A stretch of DNA of 58,507 nucleotides, counting the filler, from Dugesia japonica (lineage: Eukaryota): the NCBI GenBank assembly GCA_001938525.1. It is 6 parts of 6 records of this genome, joined end to end, with 100 filler letters (N's around TTAATTAATTAA, not from the genome) between each part and the next. Parts side by side here need not be neighbours in the genome. Positions count along the whole stretch, not along the records: positions 29,438 to 37,748 come from MQRL01565732.1; 5 more parts are not named here. One strand, written 5' to 3'. The notes beneath the pieces were generated by a model. The model made no database searches. It had not been told where the DNA came from and saw nothing but the letters and a program-made list of their open reading frames with translations. Positions 1,098 through 58,507 of this stretch are shown here, one piece after another. Every line of letters begins with the position of its first letter. Within the stretch, counting starts at the first letter, position 1. The translations under genes were made by a program, and so were the position numbers.

Positions 1098-1330
1098 TTA
1101 ATTGGAAATTAAACAAATTTGAATTAATGTTATCCACATATCCCTGAAAATTCAAAATTTTAAGACCAAGTATCACTATTTTTCCTGTTGAGATCACATT
1201 TACATATAAAGGGTCATATTTTACAAGTCGTAGAGCAGGAAATAACTCTGGTTCGAACAAATTTCTACGTATTTATTGAAATTCCCATATTTATAACAAT
1301 TGTTAGTGACTATAATTGTAATGTTTTTAT
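1098..1330 (-). pseudogene. Degenerate TBP-like (C-terminal repeat) fragment, homologous to the Maverick TBP-like gene at 31881-32333
   Basis: Manual minus-strand translation: LQL*SLTIVINMGISIN / frameshift / LFEPELFPALRLVKYDPLYVNVISTGKIVILGLKILNFQ. This matches the TBP motifs YEPELFPGL...IFVSGKVVLTG and aligns residue by residue with FKPELFPELRVNIYNSLFVNGFDSGKVVILGLQSLNYH at 31881-32081. Confidence 0.7.
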
Positions 1331-30859: not shown

Positions 30860-31480
30860 AATAATTTCATATTGGTCATAGGCCATACTCTTATTTTTTC
30901 AATAGAAAAACGTTTGTCATCCAGACATGATAACAAACGTTTCTTACTTTCCACCGTAAATAATTAATTACTGATTGACCAAAAATTGTTTTGATTGACT
31001 TTCATTTCTGCTACACCGTCTTCATTATTATATGAATCCAAGTAATTTTGATGTTGGATATTAGTTTGCTTTAAATTTATTCCCTTCGTTTTCATTGACA
31101 CATCATCATCCTCTTAAGACTGTAGCACTTTGGACGTAAAAAAACCCACTCGATATAGTTTTATCTTTGCTCTTCACCTTTAAATAGGCCGATCTTGTTG
31201 ACTACTTTACTTGAGTAGAGAGGATGATCCTTTCGATAATTGCTAGTGTCTCTTATACCATCTAATTTCATCTCTGATTTTTTATCAACTTCAGAGCATG
31301 CAAGGAAAACGCTATCTATATCACCAACAACAATATCGATTGTACACTTAAACAGCTGGCGATATTCTTCATATTGTAGCTGTTTGCTCAAATCCAGCAC
31401 CATCTGACCAATATAGCTCAGACGATTTAAGGATATATTGTCTTTATCCAACAAAACAGATTTCAATCCATCAGCAATGT
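30860..31480 (-). pseudogene. Maverick protein-primed DNA polymerase B, C-terminal part
   Basis: YIGQMVLDLSK, GDIDSVF (degenerate DTDS), DTSNYRKDHPLYS, IGLFKGE, EWVFLRPKCYSL, KGINLK, LSCLDDKRF. Confidence 0.85.
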
Positions 31481-31880
31481 CAACCGTCTTCTTGAATATT
31501 GACATTTTTTGATTTTGGCATTCTTTCCAATTTCCAATCAATAACATACAAAATTGTAATTTTATGTCCTGTTAAGTAAAGATGATCAAAAGATTGTTCT
31601 TTAAACTCTAAATCATTATCCAACTGTTTCGTTGCTTGCCTCATTTTCTCGAGATCACGTCCAATCATATTCTTTGTTAAATACGTGTTTTTTGATTTTT
31701 CAATTTCTACAGTATTTACAATAATTGGTTTATCTAGCAAGTGGAAATGGTGATTTTTAAATTTCTAAACGGTTGGTTGATGTTCTATTTCATTTTGTTG
31801 TTCATAGTTTATTGTGAAATCGTAAAATCCTAAAAGAAAGTTATACATTTATACATAATATTCTTTAATAGTAAAAATGC

Positions 31881-32333
31881 TTAATTTAAACAATGATGTA
31901 TATATTTTGCAATTTCTTTGATAATTTTATGATAATTTAATGACTGTAGTCCAAGAATGACAACTTTTCCACTGTCAAAACCATTGACAAATAATGAATT
32001 GTAAATGTTGACTCTTAACTCTGGAAATAGTTCCGGTTTGAACCAACAATCTAATACACTGCTCAATCTATATAAATTCACCCCCCTTCCTAGATCACAT
32101 GTTACAGAAATTGATTGAATACCATCTATTTAGATATTGAGATTTTTGCAAGTAATATTTTTATCGATTATCGGTTTCTTGTATCCCATGATTCGACATT
32201 TTCCAGACTCAAAAGCAATTACAGAATAATCTTTCATTTTCACTACATATCGTCTGGGTTTCTACCAGGTATTAAATCGAAGATCTGAAGATGAATCAAT
32301 TAGATGAGCTCTGTAATTAATATTTGATAACAT
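31881..32333 (-). pseudogene. TATA-binding-protein-like ORF (150 aa, two internal stops) inside the Maverick
   Basis: Single frame: MLSNINYRAHL...KPRRYVVKMKDYSVIAFESGKCRIMG...IQSISVTCDLGRGVNLYRL...WFKPELFPELRV...VNGFDSGKVVILG. It carries both TBP repeat signatures (IFSSGKMVCTG; IQNMVGSCD; YEPELFPGL; IFVSGKVVLTG). Confidence 0.8.
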
Positions 32334-32415
32334 TGCTTAATGACGAATGAGAAATAATCATGAGCTTTTATACTTTTTTTTGTATAAACAAAATCATTTC
32401 CATGGTTTTTGTAAA

Positions 32416-33361
32416 ATGTTACTACAAAACAACGCGGTTTTCAAATAGTTGGTAGTAGCGATGGGCGGTGTGTATAAAGAGCATAGACGTAATCAGCGCA
32501 AGCTAATGACTTGCGCTTACTAGGAATTCCTCGTTCATGTGAAATAATACAATTCACCATCTTTGTTACGACCGTATTTCACAAGATGGCCCAACTATTT
32601 CTAGTAAGGTTACTCGTTGGAACATGATAGCGCGCGTGCGGCCACGACATTTAAGGACATCACAGACCTGTTATTGCTCTTTTTCATTTAGCTATACGCT
32701 ATTTATTCTTCTAAGAAATGATTATTTACTAGTTAAAATAGATACACTATTTAGCAAGTTAGAGTCTCGTTTGTTATCGGAATTAACCTCACAAATCGCT
32801 CCACCAACTAAGAATGTGGAAGCGGCAAAACATTATTTGTTTGCAAATTACTACAAAGCAAATTTTTTCGGACAAAGTTCAAGCATATTTTTGGCATCAA
32901 GGTGGTGGAGGTGAAGCCGGCTTGACTAATGGTGAATTTTGCAAGTTGAGAAAGATTACGATAGTTGATGAATTCGATGATGATTGGTTAAAGAGATTAA
33001 ATACTGGGGATGTTATTGAAATAGATGATTTGTTTTAAGAGACAAATAAGTAAGCTGATTTTAAAAATTTTTTCCAAAAACTGCTCGTCAAGGTAATGTA
33101 ATTGTCATCTTGTACATGTAATCTAAATGTCCATTGTTTGGTTTTATTCAAAGATCCACGAGATTAAGCTGTGGTTGACTATATTTCTCGTCAAGCATTT
33201 CCTCAACATAAAGGATTTTTATCTGATACATTTGGCGATGTTACTACAAAATCACATAGATATTTATTTATTGATTTTCACAACAATGTTCTGATGCGAA
33301 GTGAGTAAAAACCGATATTTTTAATTCGGAAGGAATAACAGTTTTCAAACCATTGGTATAA
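32416..33361 (+). pseudogene. Maverick A32/FtsK-like packaging ATPase, interrupted by an rDNA fragment
   Basis: MLLQNNAVF..VG / insertion / GSGKTLFVCKLL (Walker A), VIEIDDLF (Walker B), NVHCLVLFKDPRD, YISRQAFP, RYLFIDF. Confidence 0.85.
32451..32816 (-). rRNA. Degenerate 18S rRNA fragment (3' third), non-functional insertion
   Basis: The reverse complement contains universal 18S blocks: TTCTTAGTTGGTGGAGCGATTTGT, GCAATAACAGGTCTGTGATG, GCACGCGCGCTA, ATGAACGAGGAATTCCTAGTAAG, TACACACCGCCCATCGCTACTACC. Confidence 0.93.
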
Positions 33362-33392
33362 ACAAAACTAGTACTTAATAAAAAAACAAAAA

Positions 33393-33871
33393 ATGAATCG
33401 ATTTAAAAAATTTGTCATCAAACAAAAGGGTGGTAGTGGTGTTAATTTGAGACGATTTACACGAAGTATTCCATACTTTAAGGCAATTTTAAGGGCTCAA
33501 TCAAATTCACGATGACAAATTATACATTTAATGTCGGCATTTGTAATGAATGACTTCATCAGTGTTTTGCAACAAATTGTTTTTGATAGAATCAATTTTG
33601 GTGACAAAAATATAAAATATCGATTGAAAAAGTATCAAGAAGCTCTTGTAGATATAGCGAAAGCAATGAATCTGGCAGCAAAAAAACGAATACTTGAAAG
33701 ACATTTTCCTATACAAAAGAAAAACAAGAAAAAGTGTAAAAACAAGTTTATTATAGACAAAACGGAAATAGATTAGCTTGGGCTGCACTTTTGCTGGTTC
33801 TAAGTTTGTTGGAAAAAGCGGCTGCAACCGGTGCAGTTGGTACTGCTACAGAATATGCTACAAAAAAATAG
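33393..33871 (+). pseudogene. Basic Maverick conserved small (core-like) protein
   Basis: KQKGGSG protease-type site and RLKKYQEALVDIAK...KKRIL pattern typical of the ORF lying between ATPase and integrase. Confidence 0.55.
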
Positions 33872-33979: not shown

Positions 33980-35000
33980 TTTCACGCAATCAAGTTGATA
34001 GAACAACTATGGTACAATCCAAAGGACGCAGTTGGATACGCCGGTATTTTAAAGCTTTCTAATGCTGCAAATGTTTCGGTAAAAGACACAAAGAAATGGT
34101 TAGGTAAACAGTTGGCGTATAGTTTGAATAGTCCAATGCGGAAACGGTTTTCAACGCGGAAATATATTGTTGCTGATGTTAATAGACTATAGCAAATGAA
34201 TTTGATGAAAGTGATTATATATGCATGCATAAATAATAAATACAGATATATTTTGACATGTGTTGATGTATCTAGAAAGAGTTGCACATGCAGTTCCAAT
34301 AAAACGGAAATCTTGTAAAGACATTTGTTGGCTTTGACGGTAATGTTTAACGATTTTCACCCAAAAGCTATTCAAACAGATTTAGTTAAAGAGTTTTACA
34401 TTACTCAGGTCAAATCATTACTGAACCAATATGATATACTACATTATTCAGTATTTTCTCAATACTAGGCTGCCCTAGTTGAGCGATTTAATCGAACACT
34501 ACGCACACGATTAATTAAGTTCTTTACCAAACAAGGTAAAAAAAATGTATATAGGTTTTACCAAAAATTATTTATGCATACAACCATTCTAAGCACTTGG
34601 AGGAGGAAAAACACCAGTTGATATTACAGATGATGATGAGTATACATTTTACTTCATAAAAAATAAACCAAAACCAAAATGTAAAATTGGTCAACATGTA
34701 CACATTTCTCGAATTAGTACTACGCTATTCATTAAAAACTTTGATAATAATTGAAGTGATGAAATCTTTCAATCTCAGAAATCAACACGACACAAGTCAT
34801 ATATGTATGAAGATTAAAATATTATAGACAAATTTTATGAGCAAGCATTGCAAGTGTTGCCGGAAAAACCAAGTATTTATCGAATCAAATCAATTCTCAA
34901 AACCAAACGACGAGAAAAATATAAACAATATCTTGTTGATTGGCATGGGTATTCAAAACCAACATGGATTCGAGCATCTCAAATATATAAGACAATTATA
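33980..35000 (+). pseudogene. Maverick retroviral-like integrase with C-terminal chromodomain
   Basis: WYNPKDAVGYAGI..KKWL, YRYILTCVDV, IQTDLVKEF, AALVERFNRTLR, and chromodomain YLVDWHGYSKPTWI. Confidence 0.9.
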
Positions 35001-35002
35001 TA

Positions 35003-35201
35003 TAGTGCAGTCTCGTTAACCCGCGGTCACTGGGGTCTATGATCTGCCCCCTCGGGTTAAGTGAAGCGCGTGTTATATTTGCTATTTTATCGATGATAGA
35101 TTGTTTATATATTCTTACTATGCTGATTATTGCTATGTAGTGCTATGTATTGCTAAGCAGAACCGTGAGTTAATGAGGCGTGGATTAACGGGACTGCACT
35201 G
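35003..35201. mobile_element. pogo/Tigger-like MITE
   Basis: TIRs TAGTGCAGTCTCGTTAACCC / GGATTAACGGGACTGCACTG flanked by TA. Confidence 0.8.
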
Positions 35202-35203
35202 TA

Positions 35204-35448
35204 TTTAATCGTCAGTAGTTGATCCAATCTTTGTTGGTGATGTACGCGTACCACTTTTGAGTAGTAATAATCATTCAATTGGTGATGTTGTACATGCAAA
35301 ACTTGAAAATTCTATGTATTTACCTGTATCGTCATCATCAATCAATAAAATTGAAGTAAATATATGTGATGCAGAAAGATTGATTGATTTTTCATATGGA
35401 TCGAAAAAAAGATTAACTCTACATTTTCGAAAAGCATATAGCGTATAA
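35204..35448 (+). pseudogene. Maverick minor capsid (penton-like) protein, C-terminal part
   Basis: FVGDVRVPLL, MYLPVSSSSINKIEVNICD, IDFSYG, LTLHFRK. Confidence 0.7.
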
Positions 35449-35482
35449 ACAATTTGATTACAATTGAATAATCATTATAAAA

Positions 35483-35887
35483 ATGATTGATCAAACTATT
35501 ATTACAATGTTTAGTTGCCCACAAATGGGAGGAGACTTATCATATTTTATCGGTAAACAACAGCATGGTGATGGAAATTAGTTGCACAAAATTGGACGAT
35601 TTGCAATGCCAATTTTGTAGAAATTTGAACTTCCAATTTCAAAGTCGGTGAGACGGGCAGCACTAAAGACTGTTGATGATGTTATAAGTAAGAAGCAGTC
35701 ATTTAAGAAATTACTCAAAAACCAAGCAATAAATGTGTTGCCGGATTTGAAAGCAAATGCCACTAATGTATTCAAGGAAGTTGTTGATGAACAGCATGGT
35801 AGTGAAATAGGTAAACGAAAGGATAAACAAACAACATTGAGTATAGACAAAGGACGGCGACTAAATGGAACCATCTTTACAAAATAA
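35483..35887 (+). pseudogene. Maverick Gly-rich core-like protein
   Basis: PQMGGDLSYFIGKQQHGDG...GRFAMPIL and EQHGS motifs, located between the minor and major capsid genes. Confidence 0.6.
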
Positions 35888-35892
35888 AAATT

Positions 35893-36230
35893 ATGTACAC
35901 CGAAAAAACTGAACTATCATTATTTGACCATGATATACCACAGGTTTTGCTGAAAGCTTAGCATTTGAAGAAATCTACCCCAAAAGACTCTATAACCGGG
36001 TATTCTGGACAACAAATTGACTTCAATATTATTGGTTAAGATAATGATTACTTGTATTTGAATGATACATTGCTCACTGTTGAAATGAAGACTGTGAAAC
36101 ATGATGGTATGGATTTGGCATAAACTGATAATACCAATGTGACCCCTTCCAATTATTTACTTTTTCACTCTTTTTAAAGAAGTATTATTGACACCAAATA
36201 ATGTAAAGGTTGACGATACCAACTGTTATT
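35893..36230 (+). pseudogene. Maverick double-jelly-roll major capsid protein, N-terminus (truncated)
   Basis: KTELSLF, FEEIYP, QIDFNIIG, YLYLNDTLLTVEMK..KHDG, PSN..FHSLFKEV. Confidence 0.8.
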
Positions 36231-36234
36231 GGTC

Positions 36235-37145
36235 TTTTTATGAAAATGTTTTTTTTTTATTTTATGTGTGTTAGAATTGTCTATATACATACATCCGTGT
36301 GTGTATAGACTTTTACAAAGACTTATATTCTATAATAAATTTTAAAATAAAAAATTAAGTCAATAAAAATATTGATTCAAAAGAATTAAAATTCAAAATT
36401 AAGAAAATAAATTAAAAACTTGGCAACCGTCAAAAGCTGAAATTCAAATCAATCCTTTATCTAAAGCAAGATTCAATTTGTCAAACCAGATCCAAAGTGA
36501 AATTAAGCATCTTAGAATAGCTTTATCAAAATCAAAACCAAACAGAAATCCAAATCAATCCTTTATCTAACGAAAGATTCAATCTCGTCTAAAGAAAATA
36601 ATAACAGTAAATTAACTAATTAAATTTTATTCGTTAATAAGATTTCGTTTAAAGTTGTGTTGATTTATAACATTAGTAATATTTATATTTGTAATATTTT
36701 TTAAAAAAAACAAACGTTGTAAGGTAATTATAAATTACAAGTTAAAGATATAATTGTTCAACACAACATACATTCCGGTTGTCCCAATATCAAGACAGGA
36801 GACACTTCCGGGCTCAACAAATTCTCCTATACACAAATTAATAATTATAATAATAATAATAGTAATAAATTATATGAAAAAACAAATATAGAATCCTCCT
36901 ATCAACCGGTATTAATCGTTCCATTTAATATAATATAATTTTTATAATATTTGTTGTTATATAATGTTTTTTTTTTTAATTTTTAATTTTAATTCTTTTG
37001 AATCAATAATTTATATTGACTTCATTTTTTATTTTAAAATTTATTATAGAATATAAGTCTTTGTAAAAGTCTATACACACACACGGATGTATGTATATAG
37101 ACAATTCTAACACACAAAAAATAAAAAAAAACATTTTCATAAAAA
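36235..37145. repeat. Long inverted repeat (~165-bp arms, 36235-36402 / 36976-37145)
   Basis: GTTAGAATTGTCTATATACATACATCCGTGTGTGTATAGACTTTTACAAAGACTT on the left arm and its reverse complement on the right arm. Confidence 0.85.
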
Positions 37146-37415
37146 CGATATATATTTACAAAACTCGGTAATTTCGGATCAGATGAATAAGTTTTGTTTG
37201 TTGGTTTGCTCAGATAAAATGAACACAAAAATCTCTTTTGTAAATACAATTTTGGAAGTTTTATCTAAATAAAAATTTCTACATGACGCTATGCATAAAT
37301 AAATTATCATGTGAGATCAAGTCGTGAATTTCAAATATCTGAGATTTTTTAATTATATATATAAGTAGTGTAGAAAATACGTTGGTACGACAATGGGTAC
37401 ACCCCCCATTTTTCA

Positions 37416-42200: not shown

Positions 42201-42339
42201 TATAACCGTGACTATATACAAAACCTTTGATGGCTTCAGAGGACGCTAATCCTTTTATTCTAAACCCGTCATTTGCAGCAATTCTCACCAATATTTCATT
42301 AAGTAAAAAATAAGTAACATCATTTAAAATAAAACTTTA

Positions 42340-42380
42340 TTGTTATATATTTCGACGGATTAACAGTCATCATCAGACAA
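42340..42380 (-). ncRNA. Second hammerhead copy in the inverted pseudo-LTR
   Basis: Reverse complement ttgtCTGATGAtgactgttaatccgtcGAAAtatataacaa, with one mismatch in stem II. Confidence 0.75.
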
Positions 42381-43461
42381 AAATGAAATAAATGAGTTTA
42401 TTCAGTCTGTATTATTCAAACAAAGATTAATGCAATTATACTGAATAGATATATAAAATATAATAAANAATTTCTAAATTCATTAACTTCGCAGACAATT
42501 GACAAAATATTGGTTGGTAATAATATTGATTTCGATAAAAAGACTAAAACTGTATTGAATAATCCTGAACCTGATAACATTTTATCAAATTGTATTGAAC
42601 CATTTGTTTTATAGATTTCTTATTCTGAAGGTTTTAAAAAGTTTAAGAATTCGATTTTGAAAGCTGCTTAGGATCTTCCTTTATTCAAAATTGTCTCTTA
42701 TTCACATAAGATTGTTAATAGCTTTGTTAATAAATCTCATACACCAATTTGTTTGTGTTCTAACCTTTTTTTATCAATTTAAATGTAATAGGGGTGATGC
42801 CACATACATTGGAGAGACTACCCGTCATCTCTGTACAGCGGTTCAAGAGCATAATCGTTTTGGTGGTGGTAGTAATATTGCTGAGCATAAAAATAAAAGA
42901 AATTGCAATGAGAATGTTAAAAATTTAATTTTTTAAAATTTTGTCTAAGCAATTTAAGAATTACTGGAAGAGAGTGTTGTATGAGGCGTTAATGATTAGA
43001 TTTCATAATCCAAATATTAATGTACAGGCAGCTCATTCAACTAAATCAATTAAAAAATTTTAAAAGAATTTTTGGATATAAAGTAATTTTTCAATTTTTA
43101 TTGAAATCATAATTTATTTTCAAATTTTTTTTATAGGTTTTTGTATTTTATTTTTTAAAGATAATTTTAAAAAATTTCATTTCTTCATAGGTTTTCTATT
43201 TTATTTTTTGAAATAAATTTCAATTTCCATAGGTTTTAAAAATTTTAATATAATCTAAAATTAAAAAATATAAATATTTTGGAAAAAGATCTTTGATTCT
43301 ATAGGTAACAGTAATAAAATATTATTATATAAATTAATTTTTTTATTGAAAAGTTGTTAAGACATTTAAAAAATTAAGAATTTTAGCCGTCTTATATTCA
43401 GTATAATCGCAATAATCTTTGTTTGAATAATACAAACTGAATAAACTCATTTATTTCATTT

Positions 43462-43502
43462 TTGTCTGATGATGACGGTTAATCCGTCGAAATATATAAC
43501 AA
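43462..43502 (+). ncRNA. Minimal type I hammerhead ribozyme (PLE-type)
   Basis: ttgt CTGATGA t gacgg-ttaat-ccgtc GAAA tata TA acaa: intact core, perfect stem II, stem I ttgt/acaa and a short palindromic stem III. Confidence 0.85.
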
Positions 43503-44440
43503 TGAAGTTTTATTTTAAATGGCGTTACTTATTTTTTATTAAACATTTGCAATGGTTTTTTGCATATTTCATTAAGTATTTCCCGATAGACAAATTTTAT
43601 CATACCAAGACCATCTACTTTTAGTTTTTGTGAAACAAAATTGTTAATTTCATCGTTTTTATTTTTTGAGAAAAAAATGTTGTAATCATGCCAATAGTAT
43701 TAGATTATTGGTGTCAGATAATAGTTTGATATGTACTGAATAGTCTTTGTCATAAGATTGGTTGTACCAAAATAAATTTTTCAATAAAAGAACACTAGAG
43801 TGCTGTACCAGTCATAAAAATGACATATAAGTCAAGTTTGTCTAGAGAAGAAGCAACGTAGACTTGTGTCAAATTAGGTGTAAGAGATGTCTCAATTTTG
43901 GACATATAGAGTGCTACACAAAATTAACAGGATACTGAGAAATTCGTGAATGCTGACGGGAAACGAAGCAAATATAAACAAATACATCGGCAAATATATT
44001 TCAATTGAAAAGAAGTACTACTAATACTAATACTACTAATATTATTATTATAAGAATAAAATATAATTCTATGTATTGCATTTATTTCAACTTTTTAATA
44101 ATTGTATTTGTTTCTACAAATAAATCTGGCTTAAATTTTATATTTTACTTTCATTAATAGCCACAAAATGTTTCATTAATCATCAAGATTCAACAGATTT
44201 ATTAAAAAAATTTATAAATAACTATTTTACTTTCAGTATTTGATTTCAGTTTACATTTGTGCTAATATAATTTTACACACATAATTTTATCCAATTTTAC
44301 ACACATGTGAATGTAATTTTGAGCAATCATCTAACAAAATTTAATTATGAAATATGAAAATGCAAAAACATTTTATTAGAAATAGAATATTATTGACTTT
44401 TTCAAGCCTTAATTGATTTCATCAATTTATTAATTATCTA

Positions 44441-45589
44441 ATGCAACAATTAAATGCAGATGTTCCAACTGGATTTTTTGAAATGCTTGTAGATTTGACT
44501 TATGATGTATTGAAAGATCAGCCTATTGATTTTTTGGAATATGCTTCAAATTATTTTCAAAAGATTTATGAAGAACAAGGCAGCAATAAAATGTACATGA
44601 GTCCAAAAACGGATGAATCTGACTCTTTTGTCGATTCTTTACTTGCTAGTTTGGATCAAATCGATTCAGATGATATTGAAGTTAAACCGAAAGCTAATTT
44701 TCGTCGTAAAAGTGTTGCGGCAGAGCGTATAGATATGGATGAATTAGAAGACGATGAAGAGATTTATGCAACTATACCAAAAACAGATATTCAACGACAG
44801 CGTTTAAAAAATGTTTGCCAACAAATTGTATTGTTTCAAAGTTTAGATGACGAACAAATAAATCATGTTATAAACGCCATGTTTCTAGTAGAACCAATGC
44901 CTGGTGAAAAAATAATTATCCAAGGTGATGATGGTGATAACTTTTATGTTATAGACTCGGGAGTTTTTAATTGTTATATAAGAGATGGTGATAGTGAAAA
45001 ACTAATTCATGTGTATAAAAATGAGGGTTACTTTGGGGAACTCGCATTAATGTATAATGCTCAAAGATCGGCAACAGTGATCGCAGAAACAACCGGAGCA
45101 TTATGGGCAATGGATAGAAAAACATTTAGATCCTTAGTAGTCGTTCAAACTTACAACCGCAAGCAAGTATATGATAAATTTTTGAAGCAGTTTCCAATAT
45201 TTCAAGAAATGACAGCTAGTGAAAGAATGAATGTTGCCGATGCTCTAGTACCAAAAAAATACGACGACAAAGAAATTATTATAAAACAAGGAAAACCAGG
45301 ACAGGAAATGTTTTTTATAGAGACTGGAGAAGTTTTAATTACCAAGATCCATCAAGGTAAAGAAATAGAAATAACTCGCCTTCATAACGGTCAATATTTT
45401 GGAGAACTTGCCTTATTGTCTAATCAGGCTCGACAAGCATCAGCGCATGCTGTAGGTACTACAAGATGCGCAATGTTAGACGTGAAAACCTTTGAAAGAT
45501 TGATGGGACCTTGTTTAGAAATAATGAAACGAAACATTCAAGATTATACTACTCAATTAGGCGAGTTATTCGGAACAGATATTAACTAG
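44441..45589 (+). CDS. PRKAR2: cAMP-dependent protein kinase type II regulatory subunit (382 aa, intronless CDS)
   Basis: RIIa docking domain (VPTGFFEML...QPIDFLEYASNYF), inhibitor site RRKSV, and two CNB domains (QGDDGDNFYVI..FGELALMYNAQRSATV; FGELALLSNQARQASA). Confidence 0.95.
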   Translation: MQQLNADVPTGFFEMLVDLTYDVLKDQPIDFLEYASNYFQKIYEEQGSNKMYMSPKTDESDSFVDSLLASLDQIDSDDIEVKPKANFRRKSVAAERIDMDELEDDEEIYATIPKTDIQRQRLKNVCQQIVLFQSLDDEQINHVINAMFLVEPMPGEKIIIQGDDGDNFYVIDSGVFNCYIRDGDSEKLIHVYKNEGYFGELALMYNAQRSATVIAETTGALWAMDRKTFRSLVVVQTYNRKQVYDKFLKQFPIFQEMTASERMNVADALVPKKYDDKEIIIKQGKPGQEMFFIETGEVLITKIHQGKEIEITRLHNGQYFGELALLSNQARQASAHAVGTTRCAMLDVKTFERLMGPCLEIMKRNIQDYTTQLGELFGTDIN

Positions 45590-49263: not shown

Positions 49264-50450
49264 CTACCGAAATTTTACGCCAAGCACCCTTCGTGCAATT
49301 ATTTTTCGGCACAATGGACATTCATTTAAGCTTATAGCACACTTATAACATGTTATAAAGTGTCCGCATGGTAGAAATATGGTCTCAATGGCTTCTGTAA
49401 GACAGATGACACAGTCGTGATCTAATAATACCCATTCTCTTTCATATTCTATTTGTGGTTTCCCTGATTCGAGTGATCTTTGGTATAACTCGATGGGAGA
49501 AACTACCTCAGTTCCTTTCCCCGCAACTATTTGTTTTAACAGCTGGTTAGTAGTTATCCGGTCTAATTTTAATATATTAGACAACCGATTAGCTTGTAAT
49601 TCCACCGCCATTTCTATCCTGTCACTAGACATATTCCATTCAACCCTACATGTTGTTCCTTGATTCTCCTCCTTATCGATCTTATTTATTCTCGAGCAAT
49701 TCGCTTGGTGGAATATAGTTGCTGGTAATCTTTCTATTTCTTTTAATACTAGTGTTTCCCGTTTACACGTGGTGCATTTAATAATCCTGTCCTTGGCCTG
49801 TTGAATGATATATAGACCATATATTGCTTTTTCTTTTAGATTTGGTAGTTCTTTGAATGTTTTTCCCCTTTCCATTCGATATCCTCTGATAGGACTACTT
49901 CCGCTAGGTTCTTTATTATTTTACAATATATCTTTTTTGGTTCTAAAATTATTTCTTCCATTTCGAGTTTTCTTCCTTTGCATTGTTGTGCTTTATTGTT
50001 GACATTTAAATTCAACAGGAATGGGCAGGTCGGAAACCATTTCCTATGCGCCTTATTAGGTCGCTCGTTCTTACCCCACATGTGTAGTATACCTTGACAA
50101 TATATGCATTTTACTCTATCTGGTCGTTCTTGGGTACCGACATAATAAAATCCAGACTTGGCTATTGCTTCCACGAGACCGGACAAATATTCAGGTAATT
50201 CGGTCAACGATTGCTTCCTTATGTTTTCGTCACGGTATTTTTCATCAAAGACTTTCATTGTACCATAACACATTCGTTTTCGTATAAAATTTTCTGGTGC
50301 TGCAAAGACGTTACGGTAGTGCATTATAGTTTGTGTTACCGAACTCTACTTGATTTCTGCTCGTCCGTTACTCATAACAAATGATTCGATCTCTGGGTCT
50401 CCGATTAATATTCTAACTTCCTCTAGTGACACTTCGAAATTGAATTCCAT
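49264..50450 (-). pseudogene. Inhibitor-of-apoptosis protein: BIR - degenerate BIR - RING (one stop, one frameshift)
   Basis: BIR: AKSGFYYVG..DRVKCIYC-x16-H-x6-CPFL. RING: CVIC..IFLPCGHFITCYKCAISLNECPLCR at the C-terminus. The ATG at 50450 is in frame with 50324 through one TAG. Frameshift near the A-run at ~49935. Confidence 0.9.
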
Positions 50451-50648
50451 TATCTACAAAATGTACATTATTGCCCCTGATTATTAAAATTATTCAATTG
50501 TTTTACATAGAATATCTATTAGAGATTTTACTTATATACGCATATAAACATTTTATTTATTGATTTTATTATATCTATTTATTATATATATATATATTTA
50601 TATATATATATATATTCTTCTTTTTTAACTTTTCCTCTCTCCTGATTT

Positions 50649-51248
50649 TCAGACAAAGCTGACTTGGTTGTGGATACTCCGGGTTTTGAGTATCTCTATC
50701 TCCCATTTTTGTGAGTTTATTAATTTTTTAAGGTGTTTGAGTTCTTTTGCTTGATCAGAAATTAGGTCATGTTGTTTGGCTACCAACTCCATTGTATAAT
50801 TTTGTTTTTCTGTAGCGATTTCCAACATTTGCCGATTTTCTGTTATTTGTTGTCGACACATAAGGGTTTCTGCATACAAATTTTCATTTTGCAGCTGTAA
50901 GATTTTATTTTTAAATTCCAGTTCGCTCCAATCTTGGCATTTGGTATTTAATAGGGTTTGTACTAGTTGATTTTGATGGTATTCGAGTTCCTCAAGTCTT
51001 TGTTGAGCCCATTTAGTTTGAATTTTAGAACTATCCCACAATGCTTTCATTTTTTCGTTGTGATTTCTCCATATTTCATTGATTGTTCTTTGTGAACAGA
51101 TACTATTACCATTTATTGAAGAAGTGCTTCCTGCAGGGCTACTACATAGGTAACTTGCTCTACTGGAATCCTTTAATTCATTTTGTGAATCCATTGATTC
51201 ATTTTCATCTAAACTTGGATAGCAGTTTTCATTTTCAATCCGACTCAT
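50649..51248 (-). CDS. Accessory ORF: Ser/acidic N-terminus plus long coiled coil (199 aa)
   Basis: Intact ORF with heptad-rich Q/E/L/K content; acceptor cctcattcag 2 nt before the ATG. Confidence 0.65.
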   Translation of the reverse strand: MSRIENENCYPSLDENESMDSQNELKDSSRASYLCSSPAGSTSSINGNSICSQRTINEIWRNHNEKMKALWDSSKIQTKWAQQRLEELEYHQNQLVQTLLNTKCQDWSELEFKNKILQLQNENLYAETLMCRQQITENRQMLEIATEKQNYTMELVAKQHDLISDQAKELKHLKKLINSQKWEIEILKTRSIHNQVSFV

Positions 51249-51336
51249 TTCTGAATGAGGATGTTTTATTAATTTTATATTTATAATTACATCTATATAT
51301 AGTTATTATGTCCTAATTTACACTATTTACACAAAT

Positions 51337-53004
51337 TCAATGTTTGTTTAGTCGTAATGTGGTCGTAGTCTTTATAGGTTCCGTAGTAGTGATTTCCATA
51401 CCTTCCCAACGATTCTGTTTTGTCTCAATTTTGCGTATATTCGACATCCAGTTATTCAGAAACTCCACTCTTCTCACTTCCTTCTTCTGGTTTTCTGTTA
51501 TAGTGGTTGTTTGGATTTTACTAGTAGTTGATAATCTGGGTGTGGATGTTGACCTTTTGGTACTCTGCTTTCGTTTTCCTTTTGTTTTCATTTTGATTAT
51601 TACATCCTGGTTGATTACTGTGATGAACTCGAATCCATATAAACCTTTAGTAAATTCCCCAATGTATAATTCTTGATTTCTTCTCCTTCCGCAATATTCT
51701 CTACTATTGAATTTCTATCCCCATTCGTAGAGGTTCTTGAGTGGGTGTACTAATAATCTTTCTACTCTCTCTCCGAATTGTATGTAATATATCTCCTTGT
51801 TCCTTTTTACCTGTAATGGGTATGGTGCTGGTCGCCAGTATGGTTTCCATCCTTTAAAATCCTGATTTGTTATGGAGCATACCTCATGACCTTGAGTAAT
51901 TGTTATGCTCTTCTGACCTAGTTCTCTCCAGTTTTTATTCCACACAACCGCTTCGTATAGCATGATCTGCCATATCATGGTATGGTAAAGATACTCATTC
52001 TTTGAACATATTTTTGTTATCTCCTCCCCGATATTAGTGGTCACCCATTCTTTGTACCTGATGTTATTCTCCGAATAAGACAATACGAGGTTCATTTCTT
52101 GTGTGGGTTCGAATTCGTGACTTGCTTCATAAACTAATGGGTTCCTTTTATTTTTCAACGTTACGTCCCAGAATTTTTCTATCTGCCAATTGTGGACATC
52201 AATTGACAATAGGTTTCCTTCCATTGGTCCTTGACTAAAGAGTTGTATGATAATTTTCTTTGGTACCTGATGCAGTCTAATCATCGTGGTTTTTTGACTT
52301 TTGATTGCCGGGTTTAGAATTAATTGTCCATAGTTGTACAGTACTTGGGTTTTCTGTTCCCTTTGCAGCCCTACATGGTTTATTGTTATGGCGTGTATTT
52401 TCTTTTCCTTGATAAATATTCGATGTTCTGTTAGCACTGGTTCGTTTACTTGACATTCTTGCCCGCTGATTCCTTTTAGGATTACCATTATTATGGTGGT
52501 TAAAATGATTTGCCACTTCGAGATTCCATTTTGAGTAACCACCTGTATTTGCGGCGTTGCCAACGTAGGTAATGCGTAGTAATGCCCATAACCATAAAAT
52601 TGTTTTGGTTATCGCTTCCGTCGGGATCTTACTCCTGTTTTCTTGTGATAATTTTTCTTCTGCGTCTCTTGATTTATTTGTTCTGCTTTGCAGGATCTGA
52701 TAACTATTTTTATTTCCTTTAATTCCTTTTTTGCTAAGTTGAGTAATCGTTTCTTCTCTTCCTCCATCATATCCTGTTGCTCCTTTATTGACTTTTCTAT
52801 TATCCTTTCCCCGCTCTGCTCGTCTTCCAGGTTCTTGTCGATCTTACTGAGTTCTGATTTCCATAAGTTTAGATCTTTCCATTTTATCATTTCATTTACT
52901 CGACAATCCTCTTGTACAGGTGGTCCAATCATCCCCCATGGTAAGAGAGCTTCCTGTGGTTCGTAAATTCTCAACCAACCCCATTGTACTAGGGTTCGAT
53001 GCAA
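51337..53004 (-). pseudogene. Env-like or secreted-protein ORF: coiled coil, RSRRKR, internal signal-like peptide, ectodomain, Thr-rich tail
   Basis: ORFs 53004-52609, 52563-51715 and 51591-51337 share one frame, separated by single stops. Hydrophobic WQIILTTIIMVILKGISG|QEC. Confidence 0.6.
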
Positions 53005-53267
53005 TAGATGAATGGATGATAGTAATTCTTCACAGTATATTTCGGTACATGATAAACATAATCTTTTTTATGGTGGATTGCTGAACAGGTGCTTCGATTG
53101 GTAATTTAAGTTCTGATCCTTCACAATCTTTTTGAACCAATTTTCCCGTCTTAATAACCATGTTTTCCTGTCATAAATAGCCTTGAAGGTAATTTTTAAT
53201 ATAGTTTGTGTTTTCTTTATACATTGTGTACAATTTCCTTCTATTTGAGTTACTGTAAGTGGGCATG

Positions 53268-55156
53268 TTATTTTCCTGATATGGACACAGTTCTCCTCTG
53301 TTTTCGATGTTTGGGTTCATTAATGGCTTTATTATCAATTAAAGGCGCAATCAGTGGTGCTTGGATATGATTTTTTGTTCTATATATTTTACTTGTTGAT
53401 CTTATTTCTGCAAGGTTTGTTTCTGCTGTTTCTATATTTGCAGCAGGTGCCCCCGTTTCTTGTATTATTATTTTTTTATTGGCAGCAGGTAGGCTCGTTT
53501 TTTGTTTTACTACTGTCTCGTTTCTCGATATTAATCCTTCCACATTTTCTTTAAACTCAGCGTCCTCGCTGAGATCGTTTAACCTTATTCTTATCTTCCT
53601 TTTTGGTACATGATTGTTTTGTGGTTTTCCATATATCATCATAGCTTTTTGTAACCGTAATGGATAGCTATGCGATATATTTAGTTCAGAGTTCTCTGCC
53701 TTGCGTGGTCTTTCTGGTCCTTTATGTTTTGTTGTATCTTTTATAGCACCTGATGTTGACGTTGTTTTCTCTGTAGTTGCTGCCTTTTTACATAAGTTTG
53801 CGTGATATATTTTTGGTTTCTCTAACAGGTTTCCTTTCTTCCTTACTTTGAGATTGGTTTCTGTTACTTCGATTACTTCATATGGCCCTTGCCACGGTCT
53901 TTTTAGTTTTGACGTGGTACCCACACAAATATCAGGTAAATTGATCAATACCATATATCCTTTTTTAAATGAATGTTGCATTGCTGTTTTATCGTGTAAA
54001 TCTATAACTTTCCTGATAAAATCCCACATTCTCCTTGGCTTGTTTCCATATTTTTTGCATAGTTTCTTTGAAATTTGCTGCAAAATCTGTTTCGTCCTGA
54101 TATTGTGTTATTGGTGGCTGAAATTCCAGATCAATAGGCATGTTGCATTCTCTACCATACATGAGTCCAAACGGAGTATATTTAGTGGCTGGATGCACAC
54201 TCATTCTATATGCAAATAGACACAACTGAATATGTTTGTCCCAATTGTTCTGTTCCTTCTGTGCGTAACTAGATAACATGTTAATCAATGTTTTATTAAA
54301 TCTCTCCGTTAACCCATCTGTCTGAGGGTGGTAAGGTGATGTTCGTAACTGGTGAATTTTGAGGAAGTTTGATACTTCAGCTAATATATTACTCATGAAG
54401 TTTTTTCCCTGGTCCGTCAATATATTTCTTAGGTGTACCATATCTGCTGAAGAATTTTCGTACCACAATATCTACTATGGTAGTTGCTTTTTGATTTTTC
54501 ATCGGAAATGCCTCCGGTAATTTGGACAGATAATCCATTATGGTAAGGATATATATATTTCCACTTAGTGTTGGAGGTAATGGTCCAACTACGTCCATAG
54601 CAATGATTTCCATTGGAGCTGCTGGTACCGCAATTGGTTTTAATAATGCTTTTACTCTTTTGCCCGTTCCTCTTCTGGCAGCACATATTTGACATTTCGC
54701 AATCCAATCCTTTACTGATTCAGTTATACGTGGCTAGTAATATTTCTGTCTCAATTTGGATTCTGTTTTCTTATGAGACATGTGTCCACCGAGTACACCA
54801 TTGTGATACTGTTCTAAAAATTTGTCTCGTCTTGCTTTATGAATAACTAATACAGTATTGTCTCCATCTTGAGCAGTCAACCATCCTTTGGTAAACGCGT
54901 AACGACCGCCATTTTTCTTAAAGTGCTCTTTCGTCTTGGGTTCACATTCTAACTTCTCCAAATTGTAATTCTCCATAAATTTTGTGATGATCTGTATTTC
55001 CTCATCATCCGCTTGTGCTTGTTTTAATCCATCGAAATTCCGATCTTCTGCTAAAATGAAATATACCATTCCTACTTTTAATAATTCTCTTAACGTAAAT
55101 GTTTCCGTATCTTCCGGTGTATTCTCCGTGACTTCTGGTCCACCAATTCTTGACAA
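53268..55156 (-). pseudogene. Gypsy integrase (HHCC, DDE, GPY/F) with a long C-terminal extension
   Basis: YHNGVLGGH..KCQIC, IAMDVVGPLP, ILTDQGKNF, TSPYHPQTDGLTERFNKTL, TPFGLMYGRE, WQGPYEV; one stop and several frameshifts. Confidence 0.93.
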
Positions 55157-55169
55157 ACAATCCGCATTT

Positions 55170-57381
55170 GAATGGCTTTACCCGTTTTAAATTTTAACAG
55201 CGGACAATAATCTTGCATTGCTAATTGCCATTTTGCCATTCTGTTCCATCGTAAGGGTTTTTGTGCCATAAAATTAATTGGCAAGTGATCCGTGTTGATT
55301 AAAACCTCGTGACCGTGTATGAGTGATCGAAAGTGTTTGGTGGCTATAACGATAGCCATTATTTCTCGTTCTGTAGTGCTATAATTCAATTCAGCACCCT
55401 GAAATTTCTTGCTGAAATACGCAATCACTCTTTCTCTGCCTTGTTCCTCTAGTTGACTTAATACTGCGCCCATTGCATATCCACTAGCATCCGTAGCTAA
55501 TATAAATGGTTTTTTAAAATCTGGATGTACCAAGATTGGTGCTGTTAGCAATTTATCTCGTAATGTCTCAAATGATTGCTGTTGTTCTGGTCCCAATATA
55601 AATGCAGTATCTTGTTTAACCAATTCTTGCATAGGTTTTGCAATTTTAGCAAAATCTTTAATGAATTTCCGATAGTAATTGGCAAGACCGAGGAATTCCT
55701 GTATTTTGAGTACGCAATTTGGTGACGCTAAATTCCGTATCTTTTCGGTGTTTCGAGGGTCAGGTTCTTTTCCTTTATCTGATATTAGATGACCCAAATA
55801 AGTCACTTTATTCATTGCCCATTCACATTTAGTAGGCTTAACCTTTAAATTCCATTTCCGCAATCTGATAAACACACTCCTTAGATTGTTGACGTGACTT
55901 TCGAATGTTGGTGAATATATAAGTAAATCGTCAATGTAGACCATGCATTGAGATATGCCGTGAGTTACATAATTCATCATTCTTTGAAATGAGGCTGGGG
56001 CATTAGTAAGCCCAAATGGCATACGGATAAACTGATATAAGTCTTTCCCTGTAGAAAAGGCGGTTTTTTCTCTGTCCTCTGGTTTGATTTTTATTTGCCA
56101 GTAGCCGCTTCGCAAATCCAATGTAGTAAATATTTTAGCGTTACACAGTAATTGCAGTAATTCGTTGATGTCGGGCAACGGGTAAGTGTCTTTTTTCGTC
56201 TGAGCATTTAATCTTCGATAATCGATACAAAATCTTTGAGTCCCATCTTTCTTATCTACTAATACCACTGGTGACTGCCATGGTGAGCAGCTGGGTTCTA
56301 TTACGCCGATTTTCACTAACTTAGCTGTTTCTTTATTTGCGAATTCTTTTTTCTCCATCGACATAGCATATGGTTTCTGCTTGCATAAGGTTTCATCTGT
56401 TAGTGGAATTGTGTGCATCGTTGCTGTGCACATCCCTAATTCTTCGTCAGTCCATGCAAAGATATCTCGAAATTCCTCCAATAATTGTAGTATTGCTTTC
56501 TTTTGATCATCCGTTAGCGTTTCGGTTTCCACTTTAAATGTTCTATCTACTTCTGGTTTGGTGGCTATTTCTTCTATCTCCCCTGCTTCTGGTTCGATGG
56601 GTGTTAGTGTACCTATCCTGGAATTTGGTTTGATTTTGATATCTTTTTCTGTAAAATTGACCAAACTAACTGGTACTTCTCCACTCTTATTAACTGTAGT
56701 TATCCCTCCTGCTGTGGGTAACTCATATTGTTGTGCAAATCCATCATAAGGTTCGAAATAACAGTCTCCTTCGTACGCACTTTTGGTGCTTACTACACAA
56801 TATACTTGGCATCTACTGGGTACCAAAATTTCTTCATGATCTTTAACATGAGTATAACCCTCCAAAGATTGTAACTGTAATGTGGAGAAGTTTAAGATAC
56901 CGTTCTTCATCAAAATTAGGAGAATATCTGTACCTAAAATACACTGTCCCGCCATTTCTACTATTATCATGCTGTGCTTGATTTTGTTATCTTGATATTC
57001 GACTTCGCAAGCTGATTCCCCAAAAATCTTCAGACTACTTCCATTTGCCACATCTGCCGTGGTGTTAGTGGGTAATATGTTTTTATATTCGGTTATCGCA
57101 ATTTCATCTATTGATAACAACGAGATGGTTGCTCCCGTATCTAGTAACGCGGTTGTAGGTCTTCCATTGATTCTTACTATGATTGTTAATATTGGTCCGC
57201 CACTGAGACTTGCGCATACCACATCTGTAGCTTTATGGCCGGGGTTGTGCTGTTTCTTGGTTTTCCATCTGGGTTCCCGTTCTTGGAACCGGATCCAATC
57301 ATCCTGTATAATAGTAGTTTTCTCATAATCGGGACTTAGATTGTTTTGCTCTCTTCTGTTTCTACGTGGTTGCTGATTCAT
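55170..57381 (-). CDS. pol: Gypsy Pol: protease 2, RT, RNase H
   Basis: ALLDTGATISL..CILGTDIL; SPWQSPVVLVDKKDG..RFCIDYRRLN, LDLRSGYWQI, MPFGLTNAPASFQ, YIDDLL; TDASGYAMGAVL, YSTTEREIMAI, TDH. Confidence 0.96.
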
Positions 57382-57399
57382 TACTGGCTGATTCCACTG

Positions 57400-58507
57400 C
57401 TATGACGGTTTTTTCCGGGTTATTATTAATCTAGTTTTCTGATATCCTACTGGAGTATATTCGTGTTCACGGTTTTCTCGTAATGATAGTTTTTTGAGGT
57501 CTAAAATTCCTTCTGGGCAGATACGCAGTAAGAGATCCAATCCTATTAGACAGTCGAATCTTAATTCGTTCATTATTTGCAATTTGTGCCACAGGCGTAC
57601 CCCGTCGCTCTCTACCGCACATACCGCTTCACCAATAGGCGATATTTTTCCTCCTGAGGCGTTGATGATAACTCCTTTAGTAATATTTATCCTGAGTAGT
57701 CGATAATCTTCCAGCACTCTTTTGTGGACTAACGTTGTACTCGCCCCCGTATCAATAATAGCTATTACCCATCTTCCATTTATTTTCATTCGTTTTTGTA
57801 GTAGTTTGGCTCGTGGAGAAATCATCATACACACGGTTTGAGTTTCTAGTTTATCATCGTCCGTGATTCTGTTAGTTGGGGGGTAGAAATTCTGTTCAGC
57901 AACTCTTCGGTCAACGGAGGTCACATTATTTTCTGTTAATAAGGCTGTATTAGGGGCCTGTGGTGCATTTATATAAGGAGTGTTATACATAGGCCCTGGT
58001 GCCCATACCTGTGGTGGTTGTTGATTCCTAGGTTGCCAGCCCTGTTGCGGATAGGCGGTATAGTACATTTGTGCTGGTGCTGGGATATTCTCATTTCCTC
58101 CGAACTTAAATGCATTTTTCAGTCGCTACATTTTACTGATTTTCTCATATTGTTGCCTTTTGAATTCTGCTTCATATTCCATAGCGGTTTTATAACTAGG
58201 TACATGTGGTATTCCGCTGTTTTCTCCTCTATCGTCATCGCTACTGCTGCTACTCTCGTCCTTATTTTTAAACCTTTTTTTAAATTGGTTGAAGTACGAT
58301 ATTTTCTTCTTGGCGTTGCTCATTTCTTCACATAATAGTCTGAGTTGCATTATGACTTCTTTGTCGGATCCTCTGATTTGTCCGAGTTTTCGAATAAATC
58401 TTTTTACTCTATCAATGTCTTTTGAATAGCTATTAAGTACCATAGTTTTGGCTAAGAAAGGGAATATTCCGGTTACCATTTTCCAATTCACCTTCTTTTC
58501 TCTTTTA
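57400..58507 (-). CDS. Upstream polyprotein part: acidic and Pro/Gln-rich region plus aspartic protease 1
   Basis: Same frame as Pol, with TAG stops at 58126 and 57400. INGRWVIAIIDTGASTTLV...INASGGKI...CLIGLDLL. Confidence 0.85.

Follow-up and report, generated by a model that had tools for sequence, protein, structure and literature searches.

The window analysed in our study, a stretch of 58,507 nucleotides of Dugesia japonica DNA, carries on its minus strand a broken gene for a minimal TATA-binding protein (TBP), which lies inside a degraded Maverick element. As the first-pass annotation of this DNA had described, the reading frame (32333 to 31881) comprises 150 codons, is interrupted by two internal stops, and is only half captured by the ORF list of the window. 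The stops are at codons 24 and 68, and the ORF list contains the final 82 aa. The features that we assigned are the following:

1111..1269, minus strand: further relic from the mini-TBP family, in which just the end of the C-lobe is left (60 bits)
30907..31604, minus strand: C-terminal part of a protein-primed PolB (pPolB), equivalent to residues 884–1125 of 1148 in the related locus L006, the remainder being deleted
31550..31764, minus strand: SSB fragment of the T7 gp2.5/Enc34 type (profile positions 2–72 of 116, E=3e-4)
31881..32333, minus strand: minimal two-lobe TBP gene, pseudogenised (Pfam, model and family alignment)
32365..32372, minus strand: canonical TATA box TATAAAAG, 39 nt upstream of the TBP start codon, a putative host-type early promoter by its sequence
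32383..32390, plus strand: TATAAACA motif, 33 nt upstream of the ATPase start codon, a putative late promoter
32416..33349, plus strand: packaging ATPase of the A32-like type, disrupted by stops, frameshifts and an insertion (its L006 homologue matches Pfam Pox_A32)
32442..32815, minus strand: degraded 18S rRNA fragment of ~375 nt inside the ATPase P-loop (DNA contigs skip 32441–32816)
33357..33364, plus strand: TATAAACA motif, 36 nt upstream of the start codon (33393) of the small conserved gene
33393..33695, plus strand: small conserved gene, broken here (homologues in related loci)
33992..34985, plus strand: broken integrase of the retroviral type, with a chromodomain (its L006 homologue matches Pfam rve)
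35065..35433, plus strand: 3' part of a putative minor capsid (penton) gene (match to the gene of relatives)
35444..35451, plus strand: TATAAACA motif, 39 nt upstream of the start codon of the PZ-like gene
35483..35884, plus strand: PZ-like gene, broken (match to the gene of relatives)
35884..36171, plus strand: 5' fragment of a putative major capsid gene (match to the gene of relatives)

The stop-repaired frame, read with X at the stops, scores 37.9 bits (E=1.6e-9) with the Pfam TBP family (PF00352), whose cut-off is 22.9, and the top 7 matches of a PDB sequence search with this frame are all TBPs. An AlphaFold2 model, for which the input was the frame with X at the breaks and an alignment of 34 rows, has a pLDDT of 91 and aligns over 148 of 150 residues with human, yeast and Sulfolobus TBP (Z 12.5–12.9, rmsd 2.8–2.9); the top non-TBP structural match has a Z of 6.0. 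Since the fold match extends over 148 residues, both lobes are present, which bears out the two TBP repeats that had been claimed, and the phenylalanines previously read in the words AFESG, ELFP and GFDSG correspond to F41, F103 and F119. The window copy differs from its family at three otherwise invariant positions, and just one of its two TFIIB-contact positions is still acidic; the gene is a member of the TBP family described below, yet it is no canonical TBP. In a DNA sequencing run, 28–51 contigs were found at the listed TBP positions, most reads being less than 95% alike, and neither stop was common to most of the depth over the gene. The window copy is a dead relic of a multicopy family. 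The second relic (1111-1269, minus strand) lies 30 kb off along the window, and no other Maverick gene was detected near it.

The start codon of the ATPase, at 32416, stands head-to-head with the TBP ATG at a distance of 82 nt, in agreement with the gap of ~80 nt given earlier. This start is hidden because ~375 nt of 18S rRNA sequence have been inserted into the P-loop; the insert is antisense in the ATPase, and other copies are without it. The same insert at 32442-32815 accounts for a large peak of DNA and RNA depth, the strong RNA peak at 32467–32548 being the insert itself. The first-pass annotation had placed the TBP gene between the pPolB side and the ATPase. The ATPase side of this placement holds, but the adjoining gene on the other side is the SSB fragment, and just a C-terminal part of pPolB survives beyond it. 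The fold of the SSB family matches Enc34 SSB (Z 8.5, rmsd 2.8, 103 aligned) and T7 gp2.5 (Z 8.0, rmsd 2.8, 105 aligned). We take the polymerase to be a pPolB from its motifs and from the Pfam Endonuclease_7 domain in L006; the penton and major capsid genes, which have no Pfam match, are presumed to be such from gene order, and the name of the PZ-like gene is putative on the same grounds.

The Maverick hallmark genes of the window copy are the pPolB and rve integrase fragments, the A32-like ATPase and the putative capsid genes; an adenoviral-type protease is absent from this truncated copy and present in 6 of 32 relatives. The small conserved gene also lies between ATPase and integrase in 6 of these 32 loci. 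Neither terminal inverted repeats nor a target-site duplication were seen to flank the window copy among the 25 longest of 96 inverted pairs; the copy is itself truncated and near assembly gaps. It is surrounded by AT-rich eukaryotic DNA, in which other transposons and split host genes occur. Two long inverted-repeat pairs, MITE-like, were seen at 36233-37148 and 42299-43543, the first of which cuts off the capsid gene. Elsewhere in the window we observed an intronless 390-aa ORF for a PKA type II regulatory subunit amid intron-rich host genes (44417-45589, plus strand) and a Gypsy-like retroelement with an env-like ORF and an IAP-like gene (BIR plus RING) behind it (49264-58335, minus strand). 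In two of three RNA runs, depth over the TBP bins did not exceed 2.3×; in the third, both strands reached 4–10×, similar to the rest of the element. None of the three runs contained a TBP-specific signal.

A search with the single window sequence identified 7 relatives; in a profile search the best 120 matches all had E<1e-46, and 42 clusters at 50% identity reached E<=1e-30. Scans of a viral contig collection and of prokaryote genomes found no member of the TBP family and no related Maverick, and tblastn against phage sequences gave no match; the sole match of the scans (L070) was an unrelated phage-like contig and was dropped. Among the 32 metagenome loci that bear the mini-TBP, 15 have a Maverick core gene and 20 an SSB. 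All long loci are Maverick-linked, with core genes in 7 of the 7 loci of at least 3.5 kb; three short loci have none of the reference genes, and locus L006 has the full Maverick core set. Gene order changes across loci and the TBP is retained, being intact in 31/32 of them as far as the contigs extend. A gene of ~175 aa lies between protease and TBP in L016, L019, L020, L022 and L026-L032; its N-terminal motif looks exonuclease-like by eye, and it has no Pfam match. In addition, a short Met-Gly-initial ORF (possible myristoylation) was seen immediately before the integrase at L008:5589, at L010:5296, and in L023 and L024, preceded by TATAAAC in L008, L010 and L024.

The TBP family is under purifying selection: dN/dS is 0.07–0.38 in 9/9 pairs, two of which have saturated dS. 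The constraint on the ATPase is stronger (0.016 and 0.050). The family has 17–33% identity to 111 cellular TBP cores, among which the median is 76%, and a median identity of 46% within itself. It forms one clade (SH-aLRT 100 in a tree with 30 rows), apart from eukaryotic, archaeal-like and IMG/VR viral TBPs, the last represented by 18 sequences. In topology tests for its origin, neither a clade with animal TBP (p-AU 0.063) nor one with all eukaryotic TBP (0.228) was rejected, and an ancient origin from animal TBP is compatible with the tree. Several of the new DNA-face residues described below are common to the family and to a wider clade of TBP-like proteins of 150–190 aa (P0305-P0367), which mostly keeps the N-lobe helices and a longer N-lobe linker (at least 25 aa in 15/17). 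One 357-aa protein, P0122, is a fusion of mini-TBP and SSB; it is a single sequence and possibly an artefact.

Residues were compared between 143 family relatives and the 111 cellular cores, with a yeast TBP numbering that agrees with the structural match. Like cellular and archaeal TBPs (PF00352; 5fur_A, 7o4i_O, 1mp9_B), the Maverick family has a two-lobe saddle with three intercalating phenylalanines, F41, F103 and F119, each present in 143/143 relatives, and a C-lobe acidic TFIIB stirrup with a eukaryote-like ELFP word, in which E101 is found in 143/143 and the other contact position is acidic in 143/143. Unlike them, it has lost the first Phe of the N-lobe, the fourth intercalating one, whose column is variable across relatives; it measures ~150 aa (median 151) against a 180-aa core, has no N-lobe helices in the model, carries polar replacements on the DNA face, and is only 17–33% identical in sequence. 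These replacements are R47 (142/143 relatives; Val in 105/111 cellular cores), M49 (143/143; Thr in 111/111), S74 (140/143; Asn in 111/111), R107 (141/143; Ile in 105/111) and N117 (142/143; Leu in 111/111), all near-invariant and four of the five polar. R107 and N117 align with yeast I194 and L205, and, according to the accessible text of PMC1636458, substitutions at these two yeast positions, both changed in the mutant TBPm3, alter TATA specificity. The N-lobe linker has a median of 19 aa in the family (n=111) versus 32 in cellular TBP (n=109) and contains no helix in the AlphaFold2 model, by which the N-lobe H2 regulatory helix is lost in the family. MAFFT and the structural match place the first strand in registers that are two positions apart, and no claim is built on that strand.

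The putative promoters of these elements share one word. In a set of 22 of the 32 loci, left after near-duplicates were removed by eye, TATAAAC has an ATG 30–38 nt downstream at 40/66 sites and the sibling words TATAAA[AGT] at 37/182 (Fisher p=7e-9; background 18%), and it ranks first for this spacing among heptamers seen at least 8 times; it is important to consider that the sites are non-independent, coming from homologous genes in related elements, and that all scored loci bear the TBP. As controls, TATAAAC was spaced in this way to an ATG at 5/28 sites in 37 IMG/VR viral (giant-virus) TBP loci and at 1/15 sites in the host DNA of the window. TATAAAC may be common to Mavericks regardless of TBP. 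It lies 32–37 nt upstream of 8/9 ATPase genes and upstream of the small gene after the ATPase in 6/6 copies, and it precedes many small ORFs too. The motif is more distant from the capsid gene (42, 45 and 75 nt in 3/4) and the protease (71 and 75 nt in 2/3), and the integrase has no TATAAAC within 45 nt. None of the TBP genes has TATAAAC at the 30–38 nt distance; an ordinary TATA box, judged by eye in AT-rich DNA, precedes the TBP gene in 16/31 loci, and one is likewise present at the window copy. The window element contains five TATAAAC sites, three of them at 33, 36 and 39 nt before the ATGs of the ATPase, the small gene and the PZ-like gene. We call the TATAAAC genes putatively late by gene identity alone. 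A short GT–AG intron lies ahead of the SSB exon in 7 loci, an arrangement that, as read from the DNA, is consistent with host Pol II transcription. In L006:1490-2135, L003, L005, L017, L018 and L021 the SSB apparently forms the second exon of a gene in which splicing joins it to an upstream ORF of acidic composition; this ORF has an ENDCEEEL-like word that we take to resemble the LxCxE Rb-binding motif. To our knowledge, vertebrate Mavericks have been reported as intronless.

Our preferred reading, to which we give somewhat better than even chances, is that the window holds a broken copy of a TBP gene conserved in a lineage of Mavericks, the intact protein of which is likely a late-promoter factor. 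Host TBP/TFIID would transcribe the TBP and SSB genes early, from ordinary TATA boxes. The viral TBP would bind TATAAAC(A), in which the C at position 7 departs from the host consensus TATAWAWR; this position would face the remodelled N-lobe, because the C-lobe reads base 2 in the geometry of TBP on DNA. The viral TBP would recruit host TFIIB and Pol II to the packaging and structural genes and, without the N-lobe helix, would escape TFIIA, Mot1/BTAF1, TAF1 and Brf1, the outcome being a two-step early/late programme in an element of 13–20 kb. No RNA polymerase is encoded in the Maverick loci seen, and no TFIIB gene was found among the 32 loci. For the full proposal, that a widespread Maverick lineage runs an early/late cascade by means of a minimal regulator-proof TBP, the private promoter TATAAACA and host TFIIB/Pol II, we consider the balance to be even. 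Several observations stand against the late-factor reading: two of the replaced residues fall in the lobe responsible for reading base 2, a base at which the motif is canonical; the dN/dS of the TBP exceeds that of the ATPase; the motif is more distant from most capsid and protease genes and is lacking close to the integrase; host TBP tolerates C-G pairs; ATAAACA would also suit a forkhead factor; and the RNA runs gave no TBP-specific signal.

The first-pass annotation had suggested that the protein is either the lineage's own initiation factor or a TBP decoy, redirecting host Pol II/III to AT-rich viral late promoters. The initiation factor is favoured over the decoy because the DNA face is rewritten yet near-invariant and because the motif keeps a constant spacing to the packaging and structural genes that it precedes; what was described as AT-richness is, more precisely, one common word, TATAAAC. 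The part of the suggestion that involves Pol III has become less likely, since the N-lobe helix, which is the contact of TBP for host regulators and Brf1, is missing. A decoy or host shut-off function, in which host TBP would read TATAAAC and the viral protein would sequester TFIIB through its conserved acidic stirrup or block host TATA promoters, we regard as unlikely. The TFIIB-contact loop is the best conserved part of the protein, and the loss of one Phe and of several hydrophobic contacts to DNA would fit such a function. In a Hoogsteen structure of TBP, the C is reportedly at position 7. Host TBP tolerates C-G pairs, which then adopt the Hoogsteen form (accessible text of PMC4402545); this also speaks for a decoy. 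However, a pure TFIIB sponge would have no need of five near-invariant new DNA-face residues at a median identity of 46%, and the element itself relies on host TFIIB and Pol II.

It is also improbable that these genes owe their expression to a forkhead-type factor of the host bound at ATAAACA, with the viral TBP as a co-factor or active elsewhere. The word ATAAACA, which we assume to fit the forkhead consensus, ranks second (44/77 sites), and position 1 of the motif is relaxed, with T in 40/52 sites; but GTAAACA, presumably the preferred forkhead word, has no such peak (2 of its 35 sites have an ATG at 30–38 nt), and fixed spacing with a single orientation better fits a core-promoter element. 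We see an equally slim chance for a role in replication, with the protein binding an AT-rich terminus or ssDNA and working with SSB and pPolB. The SSB in 20/32 loci and the fusion P0122 would agree with this, as would the ssDNA binding of the divergent Giardia TBP (accessible text of PMC12209930). Such a role, however, leaves the kept TFIIB contacts unexplained, the fusion is a single sequence that may be an assembly artefact, and the SSB linkage is accounted for by the clustering of early genes. That the gene is a functionless passenger, recently captured or retrotransposed from the host, is very improbable. The window copy is dead and an ancient animal-TBP origin is unrejected (p-AU 0.063), but an identity of at most 33% to 111 cellular cores with a median of 76% among themselves, a single clade (SH-aLRT 100), purifying selection and intact genes in 31/32 loci, as far as the contigs reach, argue against it; low identity, clade and selection refute a recent capture, the outcome that a phylogeny had been suggested to check.

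Seen as a late-promoter factor, the Maverick TBP has its closest functional analogue in ORF24, the TBP mimic of beta/gammaherpesviruses. According to the accessible text of PMC12529657, ORF24 of KSHV is a viral TBP-like late factor whose polar interface selects a variant TATA word, the TATT box, for late genes on host Pol II; its binding to Pol II is direct, it depends on five partners, and it is predicted to lack TFIIB binding. The Maverick TBP, unlike the ORF24 described there, consists of the bare core and has retained the TFIIB contacts. ORF24/UL87 have a large, Pol II-binding N-terminal domain, which the Maverick family (median 151 aa) is without, and the latter is not of that family; herpes matches in BFVD have E >= 0.004, with no close relationship to the Maverick TBP. 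In the available part of Ravarani et al. 2020 (PMC7221094), two TBP glutamates are the TFIIB contacts, and viral TBPs mostly diverge there. The giant-virus TBPs of that text are alike in being virus-encoded and in having lost the eukaryotic N-lobe regulatory signature, but they pair with a viral TFIIB, whereas the Maverick family keeps the glutamates and has no TFIIB in its 32 loci; its clade is separate from the 18 IMG/VR viral TBPs.

The elements share pPolB, integrase, ATPase, protease and two capsid genes with Mavericks, Polintons and adintoviruses as described in the accessible text of PMC8502044 and PMC8097293, where SSDBP is labelled on some adintovirus/Maverick maps. The first-pass annotation did not recognise the TBP as a standard Maverick gene. 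This stands as far as the eight vertebrate Maverick core genes given in the available text of Barreat and Katzourakis 2021 (PMC8097293) are concerned, outside of which TBP lies, but a bare 'TBP' label is already present on a map of a related MELD-virus, in the Fig. 5 legend of Starrett 2021 (PMC8502044), within the section on non-animal datasets, without discussion in the accessible text. Our comparison with this label is by legend text alone, and family identity with the Maverick mini-TBP is not implied. The Starrett 2021 label is the one direct mention found in the open-access literature on polinton/polintovirus with TBP, TATA or late promoters. The main text of Jeong 2023 has no mention of a Maverick TBP, and the readable parts of the supplements of PMC8097293, PMC11131425, PMC10748475 and PMC8502044 contain no motif or TBP.

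A dedicated promoter factor with a matching word would provide a concrete and cheap test of how the capsid genes of Mavericks are timed and of whether these elements are true viruses. The Maverick TBP alters DNA-contact residues that are invariant in cellular TBPs, and it constitutes a natural experiment in which the TFIIB surface is separated from the regulator surface. If specific for TATAAAC, it would be a ready-made orthogonal transcription switch. If the cascade is true, no smaller natural TBP–promoter pair with altered specificity would be known, and the cascade would provide strong evidence that the Mavericks of this lineage are autonomous nuclear viruses.
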